DNA from: Escherichia phage LF82-9
Reading direction: 5' to 3' (one strand)
Sequence record: PV660452
Length of the DNA stretch: 64,000 bases
The number at the start of each line of letters is the position of its first letter. The stretch's first letter is position 1. The position numbers were made by a program, and so were the translations under genes. The notes below the pieces were generated by a model that was given only the letters and a program-made list of their open reading frames with translations, ran no database searches and had not been told where the DNA came from. Below are positions 1,213 to 40,367 of this stretch, piece after piece.

Positions 1213-2901
1213 TTATGAAACAGTCATTACAGTAAATCGTCCAACTTTACTCATCTGAAGATGTTGTCCATAACGTTGAGGGTCATGGTCTCGATGAGAG
1301 ATAATGAACACGTTAGTATTTTGTAAACTTCCAAGAATGGTATCTATAGCCTTAACAGCTTCAGAATCTACAGCGCCGTCAAAAACCTCATCAAGAATCA
1401 ACGTGTTGATTTTAACACCAGAAACTTTTTCAGCAATATCTCGCCATGTAAACAACAATGCGATATCGATACGTGCCTTTTCACCTTGACTAAATGAAGC
1501 ATAACTAAAATCTTCACGACCACGTGATTTTATAGATTCATTGAATTCTTCGTCAATAGAAAACACATAATCAGCTTCCATGATTTTAAGGTAATGGTTA
1601 ATCTGCTTGTTGAACAGAGGCACATATTTTTTAATGATAGCACCTTTAATACCAGAATCTTTTAACATATCTGTTATAATACCACGATGGTATTTTTCAA
1701 GAACGTTATCCGATTTTGTTTTAATGATTTTATCAAGTTCTTTTTGAAGCAAAGCTATCTCATCGGCATGGTCGATAAATTCCGCCGAGGCTTGTTCTAT
1801 TGCAGCTTTAACTTTCTTAGCTTTATCAATAGTGGCAATCATTGCTTGTTTCTTGGTACGAATATCAGATGCAAGGTCCTGTTTAGTCTTAACATTAGCT
1901 CTATATTCGTCCACTAGGACACTCAGATTATCTCTGTGACAGGTAAGTTGCTCGAATGAGTGATTACATTCATGAAGCTTATCGGTAATCTTAGAGACAA
2001 TAGGATCACCCTGGTGCAACTGTGATGCACAAGTAGGACATGTGCCACCGTCATGATACATCTTAATAACTTTGTTGTATGAGTCGATTTTAGATTTAAT
2101 CAAGAATGCTTCTTGTCCTATCTTGTTGAATGCCTCAGTAGGGTCTTCATCAAGAACGATATTAAGTAGTCGCTCATTAGCTTCTTCGATTTCCGCTTTT
2201 AATGAACGAGCTTCTTTGGCTAGGTCGTCATACATATTCTGTAGACGCGCTACATTATCACCAGATAATTTCTTTTGACGTTCGATATTCTCGTTATAAA
2301 TCTTAATTTGTTGGATAACACCATCTTTCTTAGCATCGAGAACTTGTCCCTGGGAATTAAGTTCTCGAACTTGAGACTTATTGATTTTATCCATTTCAGC
2401 GAGTGTGCCGACTTCTAAAAGGTCTTCGACAAGTTTTCTACGAGCAGGGGTGCTAAGAGCCATGAAAGGGGTATACCCTGCCGTCCCAAGCACAACGATC
2501 TGTTTAAAAGACGCGTATGACATTCCGATGCTACGTTCAAATTCTTCTTGGAAGTCACGACTGCTGGCAGATTCATCGAGACGAACACCGTCAACGGAGA
2601 TTTCGAAAATATTGGGCTTTTGGCCTCGTTTAATGAAGTATTTTTTATCATCGAATTCCATCCAAAGCTCAACTAAGAGCTCTTTCTTGTTCGTGCTATT
2701 AATGATTTGTCCTTTCTTAACATCACGAAATGGTTTACCGAAAAGTCCGAAAGTAATGGCTTCTAACATCGTAGATTTACCACCGCCATTTTTACCAGTG
2801 ATTAATGTCTTTTGGACTTTATCTAATTGGATATCAATAGGATTCCCACCTACCGACATGATGTTTTGATAACGAACACGATTTAATTTAAATGATTTCA
2901 T
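1213..2901 (-). CDS. 46: Recombination endonuclease subunit gp46 (Rad50/SbcC-like ATPase)
   Basis: 562 aa; N-terminus MKSFKLNRVRYQNIMSVG and Walker A GKNGGGKST match T4 gp46; coiled-coil middle; C-terminal FIISH motif. Confidence 0.92.
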   Translation of the reverse strand: MKSFKLNRVRYQNIMSVGGNPIDIQLDKVQKTLITGKNGGGKSTMLEAITFGLFGKPFRDVKKGQIINSTNKKELLVELWMEFDDKKYFIKRGQKPNIFEISVDGVRLDESASSRDFQEEFERSIGMSYASFKQIVVLGTAGYTPFMALSTPARRKLVEDLLEVGTLAEMDKINKSQVRELNSQGQVLDAKKDGVIQQIKIYNENIERQKKLSGDNVARLQNMYDDLAKEARSLKAEIEEANERLLNIVLDEDPTEAFNKIGQEAFLIKSKIDSYNKVIKMYHDGGTCPTCASQLHQGDPIVSKITDKLHECNHSFEQLTCHRDNLSVLVDEYRANVKTKQDLASDIRTKKQAMIATIDKAKKVKAAIEQASAEFIDHADEIALLQKELDKIIKTKSDNVLEKYHRGIITDMLKDSGIKGAIIKKYVPLFNKQINHYLKIMEADYVFSIDEEFNESIKSRGREDFSYASFSQGEKARIDIALLFTWRDIAEKVSGVKINTLILDEVFDGAVDSEAVKAIDTILGSLQNTNVFIISHRDHDPQRYGQHLQMSKVGRFTVMTVS

Positions 2902-4640: not shown

Positions 4641-4679
4641 GCATAAGCACCTCTCAGAAAATGCCTAAATCGATTTCTC

Positions 4680-4901
4680 TCATCGTTTCCACCATTTCTT
4701 AACTTGAAATGAATCAACCCACACGAGTTGTTTTGGGTCTGCCTTTACAATAGGCGGACAAATTTCTGTAATAGAACCGTCGTGATATTCCTTTTCGGAA
4801 ATTTTAACACAAAGAGGACCTCCCAATTTAAGGGAGAACCCTGCGTTCAGCTTCAGACGTTTAAACTTTGTTTGAACTAGCGCCATTAATGATGTCCTCA
4901 A
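4680..4901 (-). CDS. Hypothetical protein (73 aa)
   Basis: ORF track only; start uncertain. Confidence 0.35.
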   Translation of the reverse strand: MRTSLMALVQTKFKRLKLNAGFSLKLGGPLCVKISEKEYHDGSITEICPPIVKADPKQLVWVDSFQVKKWWKR

Positions 4902-12755: not shown

Positions 12756-12903
12756 AATAATCTCTTCCCATTTCCATATCAATTAATTCATTTATTGAAG
12801 GTTCATCATAACATGGTTCTTCGTCGTTGTAAACCGTTTCGACGTCTGGCTCGACAGTCTCCCATCGAGCAGAATACCACGGTTTAACCCCGGAGTTTAT
12901 TGA
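12745..12903 (-). CDS. Hypothetical small acidic protein (52 aa); below ORF-track cutoff
   Basis: Manual translation MKSSINSGVKPWYSARWETVEPDVETVYNDEEP... Confidence 0.3.
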   Translation of the reverse strand, partial: SINSGVKPWYSARWETVEPDVETVYNDEEPCYDEPSINELIDMEMGRDYYAS

Positions 12904-38008: not shown

Positions 38009-38482
38009 TTATATGATTTGTTTAGCAGACCAAATGCGGTCTTTAATAATTTTTTGGATGTCTTCAACATATTCAAGAGAGTGAACATGTGGGTTATCTT
38101 TGAAACTATAAGCACGAGCTAGCTTTTGGCCTTCAGTTTTGATTATCAAAAGTTCTTTAAGAATTGCTTCATACCTAGAGATAATTCCTTTAGCAATATT
38201 TTTTTCTTGTGCTGCTTTAGGGTCAGCCTTAGGAGCAGGTTTACCTGAAGCCTTTGCAAAAGCAGCTCCAGTAGCAACTAAACTTTTCCAAGCCATACTA
38301 ACTGCATTCCCTGTAAATCCTTCGGCTTTCATATCACGAGCAAATTGGAATCGTGATTCATCGGAAGCATCTTTATAGGAATATTTACCCGCGGCAATGG
38401 CAGCTTTTGCAACAGCTTGAATTTCAGTGCTAGATGCTTCATTTAACACCGCTTCATTTAAAAATTGAGCATATGATTTCAT
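38009..38482 (-). CDS. Internal-protein-like with capsid-targeting leader (MKSYAQFLNEA), 157 aa; late-promoter driven
   Basis: Leader similarity; A/K-rich body; TATAAATA upstream. Confidence 0.6.
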   Translation of the reverse strand: MKSYAQFLNEAVLNEASSTEIQAVAKAAIAAGKYSYKDASDESRFQFARDMKAEGFTGNAVSMAWKSLVATGAAFAKASGKPAPKADPKAAQEKNIAKGIISRYEAILKELLIIKTEGQKLARAYSFKDNPHVHSLEYVEDIQKIIKDRIWSAKQII

Positions 38483-38518
38483 CTTATTTCCTGTTTTAAT
38501 TCGTGGTTTTAATATACT

Positions 38519-38526
38519 TATTTATA
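38519..38526 (-). promoter_or_regulatory. T4-type late promoter TATAAATA
   Basis: Exact consensus on the minus strand ~37 nt upstream of the ATG at 38482. Confidence 0.5.
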
Positions 38527-38529
38527 CTA

Positions 38530-38556
38530 AAAAGCCCCAACCTTTCGGTCGGGGCT
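38530..38556 (-). terminator. Intrinsic terminator (GCCCC/GGGGC family)
   Basis: AAAAAGCCCCAACCTTTCGGTCGGGGC; U-run on the minus-strand RNA. Confidence 0.7.
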
Positions 38557-38560
38557 AAGC

Positions 38561-38760
38561 CTTGCGGCAACCTTGTCGGGGTTCCACCTGCTAAGGCAAG
38601 TGTTTGTACGAAACGCCGGGATTCGAACCCGGTTATTAAGCAGTTGACGCTACTCAATATTTTTAAAAGGCCATATCTCGACCATATCCGAACGTTCCGT
38701 CAAAAACGCTACTCGGCTTACGGCAAAGATATTTCCTCGAATCGATAATTCGGTGCGCCG
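38561..38760 (-). ncRNA. Candidate small stable RNA / tRNA-like remnant (T4 species-1/2 RNA region analogue)
   Basis: No plausible ORF; canonical tRNA T-arm CCGGGTTCGAATCCCGG at 38616-38632 (minus) without a full cloverleaf; ends at a terminator. Confidence 0.3.
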
Positions 38761-38843
38761 TTTCTGCTGTGATGTAAGAGGGCATCAATAAACGCAAAGA
38801 TTATTAACGCAATTCCTTACTCAGGGAACATCAGTCCGACGAC

Positions 38844-39398
38844 TTACCGGTAGCGACCCGGTTTCTCATTTGGTATTTCAAATTGTGTAGATTTAGTATC
38901 TAATTTTTTAACTATGGAACTTATGTCATGAAAGAAAAACCATTCACCATTTATATGGTCCTGATTATAAATGCTGTGCATATATTTTTCAAGTTCTACT
39001 GCATCCTGGGAATATCTAAATGATACTATTTTAAAACTTTTAAACGGTGAAAATGTATTTGCTGTTATAACTCTAACATCAGGTTCTATACTTCTTCCTA
39101 TTTTATAATAATTAGGATTTGTAGTATCTACCATTATGTATACGAAAGCCTGTCGATAGCTTTTTTCTATATCAAATTCATCTTTAAATTTCAAAAGATT
39201 TAGGGCGGCAGTCCTACAAAATACTTTCCATTTTGACAAGCGTTTGGCTTCAGTCATAGAAAAGAATTTTTTCTTATCTGTTATTTTAAGAAAAGCAACA
39301 TTTTCAATTAGTTCTTGTGTTATTTCAAAATTACCATGGTATATTAATCCAGCTTTTATAGCCAAATTAATTTGGTCCCAGTCTACATCACTTCTCAT
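38844..39398 (-). CDS. T5orf172/GIY-YIG-like domain protein (184 aa) adjacent to the tRNA cluster; possible seg-type endonuclease relative
   Basis: Motif FVYIMVDTTNPNYYKIGRS resembles the GIY...YIG/T5orf172 core, but in the middle of the protein. Confidence 0.4.
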   Translation of the reverse strand: MRSDVDWDQINLAIKAGLIYHGNFEITQELIENVAFLKITDKKKFFSMTEAKRLSKWKVFCRTAALNLLKFKDEFDIEKSYRQAFVYIMVDTTNPNYYKIGRSIEPDVRVITANTFSPFKSFKIVSFRYSQDAVELEKYMHSIYNQDHINGEWFFFHDISSIVKKLDTKSTQFEIPNEKPGRYR

Positions 39399-39419: not shown

Positions 39420-39496
39420 TGGTCAGGGTGAAAGGATTCTAACCTTTAACCTGCGGTTTAGAGGACCGCTACTCTATACAATTGAGTTACACCCCG
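39420..39496 (-). tRNA. tRNA-Arg (anticodon UCU)
   Basis: Manual cloverleaf: anticodon stem GCGGT/ACCGC, loop CCUCUAA, T-arm AAAGG-TTAGAAT-CCTTT, encoded CCA. Confidence 0.7.
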
Positions 39497-39622
39497 TAAT
39501 TAGTTCACAGCAATACCTACTCCAACAATCAAGATGTCTTCACACGAAATTAAGAGAAGTGTGATCAGTTCAACCCCTATAATCGCGTCAAGTAGATATT
39601 AATGTGACAGTTGTCACAAGTT

Positions 39623-39697
39623 TGGCGGACATGCATGGATTCGAACCATGGACCAATTGATTAACAGTCAACTGCTCTACCACTGAGCTACACATCC
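39623..39697 (-). tRNA. tRNA-Asn (anticodon GUU)
   Basis: Manual fold: D-arm GCTCAGTGGTAGAGC, anticodon loop CUGUUAA, T-arm CATGG-TTCGAAT-CCATG, encoded CCA. Confidence 0.65.
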
Positions 39698-39701
39698 AAA
39701 T

Positions 39702-39788
39702 TGGTGGGGAGTGGTGGAGTCGAACCACCCGAGTCGCAATGACAATGAATTTACAGTCCACACCGCTACCTCTACGGGATAACTCCCC
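39702..39788 (-). tRNA. tRNA-Tyr (anticodon GUA), long variable arm
   Basis: 87 nt; acceptor GGGGAGT/ACTCCCC, anticodon loop CUGUAAA, T-arm GGTGG-TTCGACT-CCACC. Confidence 0.55.
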
Positions 39789-39794
39789 TTAATT

Positions 39795-39869
39795 TGGTGG
39801 CCCTGGGTGGAATTGAACCACCATCTGGCGATTATGAGTCGCTTGCTTGAACCTTCCAGCTACAGGGCC
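39795..39869 (-). tRNA. tRNA with CAU anticodon (Met or lysidine-modified Ile)
   Basis: Acceptor GGCCCTG/CAGGGCC, anticodon loop CUCAUAA, T-arm GGTGG-TTCAATT-CCACC, CCA encoded. Confidence 0.65.
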
Positions 39870-39870
39870 T

Positions 39871-39946
39871 TGGTGCTGATTAACGGAATCGAACCGCCGA
39901 CCTTCTCATTACAAGTGAGTTGCTCTACCTACTGAGCTAAATCAGC
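39871..39946 (-). tRNA. tRNA-Thr (anticodon UGU)
   Basis: GCTGATTTAGCTCAGTAGGTAGAGC...CUUGUAA...GGCGG-TTCGATT-CCGTT; matches T4 tRNA-Thr architecture. Confidence 0.8.
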
Positions 39947-39951
39947 AAAAC

Positions 39952-40041
39952 TGGCGGAGGCGATAGGATTTGAACCTATGAGTCGCCGGAGCGACTGCCG
40001 GTTTTCAAGACCGGTGCATTAAACCACTCTGCCACGCCTCC
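39952..40041 (-). tRNA. tRNA-Ser (anticodon UGA), long variable arm
   Basis: GGAGGCGTGGCAGAGTGGTTTAATGCACCGGTCTTGAAAACCGG... matches T4 tRNA-Ser. Confidence 0.85.
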
Positions 40042-40043
40042 AG

Positions 40044-40117
40044 TCTCCATACAAGGATTTGAACCTTGGACCTCCTGATCCCAAATCAGGCGCTCTACCA
40101 AACTGAGCTACACGGAG
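40044..40117 (-). tRNA. tRNA-Pro (anticodon UGG); 3-prime CCA not encoded
   Basis: Anticodon stem-loop CCTGA-TTTGGGA-TCAGG; T-arm CAAGG-TTCAAAT-CCTTG. Confidence 0.75.
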
Positions 40118-40127
40118 TAAATTAAAT

Positions 40128-40201
<74 letters not shown>

Positions 40202-40206
40202 AAATT

Positions 40207-40293
40207 TGGTGCGAGAAGTGGGACTCGAACCCACAAGGAAATCATTCCGCAGCATTTTAAGTGCTGTGCCTTTACCAATTTGACCATTCTCGC
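40207..40293 (-). tRNA. tRNA-Leu (anticodon UAA)
   Basis: GCGAGAATGGTCAAATTGGTAAAGGCACAGCACTTAAAATGCTGCGG...GGGTTCGAGTCCCACTTCTCGCACCA matches T4 tRNA-Leu. Confidence 0.88.
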
Positions 40294-40294
40294 G

Positions 40295-40367
40295 CTGGGA
40301 ATAAAGGACTCGAACCTTTGCATCCTGGAATCAAAATCCAGTGCCTTACCAACTTGGCTAATTCCCA
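40295..40367 (-). tRNA. tRNA-Gln (anticodon UUG); CCA not fully encoded
   Basis: TGGGAATTAGCCAAGTTGGTAAGGC...CTGGA-TTTTGAT-TCCAG...GGTTCGAGTCC resembles T4 tRNA-Gln. Confidence 0.8.

Follow-up and report, generated by a model that had tools for sequence, protein, structure and literature searches.

What does the window, a 64,000-nucleotide stretch of DNA from Escherichia phage LF82-9 (sequence record PV660452), encode between a terminator and the gene at 38844, in an interval of some 280 bp where an earlier note, made from the letters alone, had seen a tRNA T arm on the minus strand and no cloverleaf to go with it? Alignment to the genome of phage T4 (NC_000866) gives a first answer. The minus strand carries a counterpart of T4 rnaD (71053-71171; 118 of 119 positions match, with one 1-nt deletion), followed by a counterpart of T4 rnaC (70908-71046; 137 of 139 positions identical, two substitutions). 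In the T4 record both genes follow immediately on tRNA-Arg, on the minus strand, under the label 'small, stable RNA; species 1/2 RNA', and the window keeps their order, their strand and their place behind the tRNA genes and ahead of a terminator. Judged by this alignment, it is practically certain that the interval holds the orthologues of T4 rnaD and rnaC, small stable non-tRNA RNAs encoded last in the tRNA operon. The earlier note had suggested, as one possibility, an analogue of the two stable non-tRNA RNAs of T4, and this is literally true. Several Tequatrovirus genomes, among them Shigella phages Sf21 and Sf22 and phage Aplg8, match bases 38483-38843 (361 bases) with 100% identity, and near matches occur in 719 phage records; over its identical stretch, the annotation of Aplg8 names rnaD ('species 2 RNA') and rnaC ('species 1 RNA'). 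As to which genes are present, there is therefore no novelty, the two being already known. The earlier note had treated the interval as a single element, but it comprises two RNA genes, and its upstream edge had been set 26 nt too far downstream, rnaD starting at 38869.

The locus differs from that of T4 at two junctions (Table 1). Whereas tRNA-Arg abuts rnaD in T4, the window has an ORF for a 184-aa protein with a MUG113/T5orf172 domain between the two genes, and the last 26 nt of this ORF are the first 26 nt of rnaD, its 5' end. The 12 nt at the junction, ATACCAAATGAG, equal the 3' end of T4 tRNA-Arg joined to the start of rnaD. From its sequence context, the ORF looks like a mobile-gene insertion at a T4-type tRNA-Arg/rnaD junction; phage VR7 shares this arrangement. 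At the other end of rnaD, the T4 spacer AAAUUA makes for an encoded CACCA, whereas the window encodes CACCG. After rnaD, T4 reads GCGCACCA, with its CCA end, and the window (at 38751) and most relatives read CACCG or CACAG, so that encoding a CCA here is not a conserved trait of rnaD.

Table 1. Features of the locus, with related elements located in other phages. Coordinates are those of the window unless a stretch of another phage is given; RNA position p of rnaC is window coordinate 38746-p.
Feature	Coordinates	Strand	Description or basis
Ten tRNA genes: Gln, Leu, Gly, Pro, Ser, Thr, Met(CAU), Tyr, Asn, Arg	39420..40367	minus	ARAGORN, Rfam
184-aa ORF, MUG113/T5orf172 domain	38844-39398	minus	Pfam E = 2.6e-9 and 3.4e-6
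rnaD (species 2 RNA)	38869..38752	minus	118 nt; aligned full-length to T4 rnaD
Spacer between rnaD and rnaC, GAAUUA	38746..38751	minus	6 nt; alignment; T4 has AAAUUA
rnaC (species 1 RNA)	38745..38607	minus	139 nt by T4 annotation
rnaC acceptor-type stem, 5' strand, positions 2-8, CGAUUCG	38738..38744	minus	pairs with 131-137
rnaC arm I, positions 14-73	38673..38732	minus	long irregular hairpin; D-arm position of a tRNA
rnaC arm I apical loop, positions 43-48, UUGACG	38698-38703	minus	6 nt
rnaC arm II, positions 87-112	38634..38659	minus	10-bp hairpin; anticodon-arm position of a tRNA
rnaC arm II loop, positions 97-102, CGUCAA	38644-38649	minus	exact complement of arm I loop
rnaC T arm, positions 114-130, CCGGG-UUCGAAU-CCCGG	38616..38632	minus	the 'orphan T-arm' of the earlier note
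rnaC acceptor-type stem, 3' strand, positions 131-137, CGUUUCG	38609..38615	minus	followed by U138, discriminator position
3' trailer with 7-bp hairpin, CACUUGC/GCAGGUG	38557..38606	minus	conserved; outside the mature RNAs
Intrinsic terminator	38533..38556	minus	10-bp stem, GAAA loop, UUUUU; ends the tRNA/stable-RNA operon
Marfavirus-type 77-nt rnaD-like element	three stretches: 67-143; 2281-2357; 12773-12849		nhmmer
rnaC homologues, unannotated or overlapped by a CDS call	Klebsiella phage UTI-K4 stretch 4652-4797; Moonvirus KM16 stretch 2473-2616		

The surroundings are those of a tRNA operon. In T4, the tRNAs and the species I and II RNAs derive from a common primary transcript of ~1.75 kb, which stops behind the gene for species I (PMC2330249). 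In the window, the terminator that the earlier note had placed beside the interval is indeed there, as a 10-bp hairpin followed by a T-run. The hairpin in the 50-nt trailer between rnaC and this terminator shows one compensatory change and is retained by the Dhakavirus phages JS98 and MX01, from which rnaC is absent. Inside the 184-aa ORF, ~95 nt upstream of rnaD, lies a sigma-70-like promoter motif (TTGAAA-17-TATAAT, 11 of 12 matches; 38964-38992, minus strand), which could provide rnaD and rnaC with a transcript of their own. Further upstream, a gap of 126 nt without a tRNA call separates tRNA-Asn from tRNA-Arg (39497-39622, minus strand); in the close relative Aplg8, a tRNA-His is found just upstream of tRNA-Arg. 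Directly after the terminator, a T4 late-promoter motif, TATAAATA, is found at 38526-38519 on the minus strand, and behind it an ORF for a protein of 157 aa (MKSYAQFLNEA...; 38009-38482, minus strand), for which a Pfam search gave no match and whose N-terminus we take to resemble the leaders of T4 internal proteins.

The individual sequence observations of the earlier note were borne out by inspection of the minus strand. The T arm, CCGGGTTCGAATCCCGG, is found at exactly 38616-38632, and the two copies of GAGTAGCGT at 38706-38714 and 38647-38655; as this 9-nt repeat is not conserved in the Kanagawavirus, Marfavirus and Jiaodavirus homologues, it is probably incidental. The interval is free of ATG-started ORFs, with TTG- or GTG-started ones of 44, 53 and 81 aa as its only frames, in line with the absence of an ORF with a credible start noted before. 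The T-loop core GGTTCRANTCC occurs in nine copies in the window, where chance would give 0.14; eight lie within annotated tRNA genes and the ninth in the T arm of rnaC (38619-38629, minus strand), which reads GGTTCGAATCC. For the T4 homing endonuclease SegB, the same core is reported to be indispensable within the recognition site (PMC2330249); since the T arm of rnaC fits it, the rnaC DNA may be a SegB-type target.

Into what structure, then, is this T arm built? The minimum-energy fold of rnaC has -50.2 kcal/mol (z = -4.55), and 0 of 200 shuffles fold as well. From homologues gathered from a phage collection, IMG/VR and metagenomes, a covariance model of the family was built, against which window bases 38604-38745 score 157 bits. 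In an alignment of 24 distinct sequences, representing eight Tevenvirinae genera, pairing holds in 90.3% of cells and 36 of the 54 pairs change on both sides, a value reached by 0 of 500 shuffles, with slid controls pairing at 38-44%. Judged by this covariation, rnaC is a conserved variant of the tRNA-like cloverleaf. The earlier note had made its RNA reading depend on structural conservation in related phages, and this is what the 24 homologues exhibit; its orphan T arm is no leftover of a tRNA or tRNA pseudogene, as the surrounding fold is maintained by compensatory changes across the eight genera.

The ends of rnaC are joined by an acceptor-type stem of 7 bp (2-8/131-137), which abuts and stacks on the T arm. 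Its pair 4-135 is intact throughout, as A-U in ten sequences and as G-C in 14, and two tandem, invariant U.U mismatches are present in most genera and in the window. In Jiaodavirus these mismatches, 5-134 and 6-133, are replaced by U-A and A-U, and 7-132 changes from C-G to U-A, giving seven Watson-Crick pairs. Folded by itself, the Jiaodavirus RNA adopts this architecture too; its fully Watson-Crick acceptor stem is followed by an encoded U-CCA, which is also found in Marfavirus, whereas the window encodes U-ACAA after the stem (...CGU-ACAA). In the T arm, pair 116-128 is G-C in ten sequences and U-A in 12. The CIP9-type Kanagawavirus sequences have a non-canonical T loop, UGCAUGC, so that recognition specific to the T loop would not be universal. 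The two arms between these elements have such changes as well: arm I, which stands on a 3-bp stem (9-11/76-78), has changes on both sides in 16 of 20 basal and middle pairs and in five of six apical pairs, and arm II, preceded by an A/U-rich linker, has them in ten of ten stem pairs.

The loops of these two arms are complementary to each other. The resulting helix, 43-48/97-102, was outside the model used for the alignment, and is paired in 24 of 24 sequences. Three variants exist, UUGACG/CGUCAA, UUGGCG/CGCCAA in Marfavirus and UUGCAG/CUGCAA in Jiaodavirus; otherwise, neither loop varies, although the stems that carry them drift. As the covariation comes from two independent clades only, it constitutes modest, if coherent, evidence for a kissing-loop interaction. 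Geometrically, the basal part of arm I (~20 bp) and a coaxial stack of its apical stem, the kissing helix and arm II (~22 bp) are of similar length, making a closure within one molecule plausible in such a model; alternatively, the loops may pair between molecules and form a dimer. A further candidate helix was rejected. An 8-bp stem between ACGGAACG (46-53) and CGUUUCGU (131-138), taken from a weak alignment to tRNA-Sec, has no pair that changes on both sides; position 49 fails to pair with 135 in ten of 20 sequences, positions 49-53 covary with 38-42 instead, and forcing the stem costs 13 kcal/mol (-36.9 vs -50.0).

The companion RNA is built differently. In rnaD, a sequence-invariant 5' domain of 46 nt and an invariant 3' domain enclose a hypervariable, covarying central hairpin, in which all but one of the seven pairs that change on both sides in the consensus fold are located. 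The 5' hairpin has a CCGG/CCGG stem and the loop GUCGCUA, and a basal stem pairs GUCGUCG with the 3' sequence CGGCG.AC. Such invariance of the 5' and 3' domains would point to sequence-specific recognition.

How does rnaC relate to known classes of RNA? ARAGORN calls neither a tRNA nor a tmRNA here, and Rfam at gathering level reports no family, in agreement with the failed attempt at a cloverleaf in the earlier note, and the covariance-model search against Rfam that it had proposed as a check thus returned no family for the interval. A permissive search of Rfam 15 gave only matches with E > 0.7 there, the sole one from the tRNA clan being tRNA-Sec (16.6 bits against a threshold of 47, E = 3.6); conversely, real tRNAs match the rnaC model weakly, at 14-25 bits. 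With canonical tRNAs (RF00005), rnaC has in common a T arm with a 5-bp stem, a UUCGAAU loop and the GGTTCRANTCC core, a terminal stem of 7 bp, formed by the two ends and adjoining the T arm, a layout of four arms, a location inside tRNA arrays with tRNA-like spacers, and, in some genera, an encoded U-CCA. It differs from them in failing the tRNA models of ARAGORN and Rfam, in its length of 139 nt, in a hairpin of ~60 nt that replaces the D arm, in the tandem U.U mismatches of its acceptor-type stem, and in an 'anticodon' arm of 10 bp with a 6-nt loop, as opposed to a 5-bp stem with a free 7-nt loop. Since this 6-nt loop pairs with the loop of arm I, there is no anticodon.

Mimicry of the acceptor and T arm on a non-tRNA body, handled by tRNA enzymes without decoding, is familiar from the tRNA-like domain of tmRNA, from bacterial YrlA and other Y-RNA-like RNAs and from the 3' tRNA-like structures of plant viruses. 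By analogy, rnaC would share with these the acceptor/T-arm mimic joined to a non-tRNA body; membership in any of these groups, however, is not supported, as it has no match to an Rfam family even at permissive thresholds, no tag reading frame and no Ro-binding stem. For the release of a phage non-tRNA RNA by RNase P, the C4 antisense RNA of phages P1 and P7 appears to offer a precedent, being a phage small RNA matured by RNase P, as far as the references given in PMC11143913 indicate. C4, however, acts by antisense pairing, and rnaC and rnaD have no sequence relationship to it and no known target.

The family spans eight genera. The rnaC model recovers homologues in Tequatrovirus, Mosigvirus, Gaprivervirus (VR7), Karamvirus, Kanagawavirus, Moonvirus, Marfavirus and Jiaodavirus, and none in the searched stretches of Dhakavirus JS98 and MX01, Gelderlandvirus STML-198, Aeromonas phage 31 and Gaprivervirus MN01. 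On this evidence, rnaC is dispensable in many relatives. The two RNAs do not always travel together: rnaD occurs without rnaC in Dhakavirus (JS98, MX01) and in the 6-kb stretch of Gaprivervirus MN01, rnaC occurs without a full rnaD in the stretches examined of Karamvirus, Kanagawavirus, Moonvirus and Jiaodavirus, and in Marfavirus a 77-nt rnaD-like core is located ~400 nt upstream of rnaC. This Marfavirus-type element consists of the 5' and 3' core of rnaD without the long central hairpin (nhmmer 24.8 bits, E = 2e-5). By their distribution, rnaC and rnaD are separable modules, insofar as the compared sequences represent these genera. In Karamvirus, Moonvirus and Jiaodavirus, 2-8 nt separate rnaC from the neighbouring tRNA genes, as if it were a further member of the array, and in Karamvirus and Moonvirus it is found in the middle of the array among tRNAs, away from the 3' end. 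In 138 Jiaodavirus records, Marfavirus and Moonvirus KM16, it is unannotated or hidden under CDS calls for a 'hypothetical protein'. BLAST searches with rnaD and rnaC against 5,426 E. coli genomes gave no match, and a pattern scan of metagenomes yielded, among the matches listed, mostly chance hits and five true ones, which added no diversity.

How might these RNAs come about? Transcription of the minus strand would run from the ten tRNA genes through the 184-aa ORF, rnaD and rnaC and stop at the terminator (38556-38533). As RNase P and the enzymes that mature tRNA 3' ends recognize the acceptor/T-arm unit, the host tRNA-maturation machinery would then cut rnaC out like a tRNA and would thereby also release rnaD. 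This route, operon transcription followed by excision of the tRNA type, is in part one that we infer, and we consider it likely.

Their function has been described as open for years: a 2010 review states of the species 1 and 2 RNAs that 'their biological roles are unknown' (PMC3014915); the 2022 T4 transcriptome study, in which RNAC and RNAD were detected during infection and classed as late RNAs with a check by a Northern blot that used an RNAC probe and a stable RNA of ~140 nt reported for T4, gives their functions as 'yet unknown' (PMC9697503); and a 2025 evolution study still calls the function of rnaC and rnaD unknown (PMC12685909). In this last study, adaptation of the T4-like phage BW1 to E. 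coli ECOR34 produced a convergent SNP in rnaD, the only mutation common to all three evolved lines, and the virulence of the adapted lines on this host rose from 0.17 to 0.98 (PMC12685909). There are hints, then, that rnaC and rnaD matter on natural hosts. On laboratory strains, T4 deletions removing the tRNA region are viable. Lacking an anticodon loop, rnaC cannot decode; it may instead mimic a tRNA without decoding and thereby occupy or titrate a tRNA-recognizing factor of the host or the phage, with effects that depend on the strain. We put forward this role of a mimic or titrator with host-dependent benefit tentatively, as the first in a ranking in which a cis-acting role comes next and base-pairing regulation last; by itself, it is possible rather than probable. 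Taken together as one explanation, our readings of identity, biogenesis and function merit good confidence.

Could the locus be explained without any such role? The decayed tRNA gene considered in the earlier note, its T arm left by chance, would be in keeping with the adjoining tRNA cluster and with a perfect T arm that draws no tRNA call from ARAGORN or Rfam. Its product, however, is nearly identical (137 of 139 positions) to an RNA annotated as stable in T4, and has been kept in eight genera with non-tRNA arms that show no decay, which makes this origin very improbable. Small protein-coding genes, as annotated in many GenBank records under names such as 'hypothetical protein' or 'putative transmembrane protein', deserve even less credence. 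CDS calls do cover this place in several phage records, and the short TTG/GTG frames overlap the interval, but all three are without an ATG start, T4, VR7 and four further homologues have stops in each of the six frames across rnaC, no frame stays open throughout the homologues, and the homologues differ by indels of 1-2 nt and by paired substitutions. With compensatory changes in 36 of 54 pairs, both the pseudogene and the coding reading are effectively excluded.

More serious is the possibility that rnaC and rnaD have no function in trans and are stable by-products or cis modules, such as processing scaffolds or a 3' protection of the upstream tRNAs, which accumulate by virtue of their compactness. 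Cotranscription with the tRNAs, the placement as the last genes of the operon, ahead of the terminator, the lack of a known phenotype, the absence from several related genera and the retention of the trailer hairpin where rnaC is absent would all be expected of them. A by-product, however, has no need for mutually covarying loops in rnaC or for an invariant 46-nt domain amid drifting stems across genera in rnaD, rnaC is located mid-array in Karamvirus and Moonvirus and away from the 3' end, and the adaptive rnaD SNP alters host-specific virulence (PMC12685909); on balance, we find such an origin rather unlikely. Less likely still, and indeed improbable, are base-pairing regulatory small RNAs, whose single-stranded segments would pair with host or phage mRNAs and control their translation or decay. 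The label 'small regulatory RNAs' in recent papers (PMC12685909, PMC9697503), the classification of both as late RNAs (PMC9697503) and the long sequence-invariant segments of rnaD speak for them; but no target is known, the invariant loops of rnaC are not free but each other's complements, its fold is closed and tRNA-like, and at the sensitivity of BLAST neither similarity nor an antisense match to E. coli genomes is found.

What can be gained from the tRNA-mimic reading, which we prefer? For an RNA known by name, our analysis adds a concrete, testable fold, in which a tRNA-like acceptor/T-arm module is combined with two arms and a covarying loop-loop helix, and it extends the rnaC family to genera in which it carries no annotation, some of its members having been miscalled as protein-coding. 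In its strongest form, which we regard as doubtful, rnaC would represent a widespread, mostly unannotated family of compact tRNA mimics, acting as decoys or titrators against a host factor that targets or binds tRNA, the acceptor/T-arm module being locked onto a closed body by the kissing loops. If so, its target could be, for example, a defence toxin that modifies acceptor ends or cleaves tRNAs, and the 50-year-old 'species 1 RNA' would gain a function in counter-defence.
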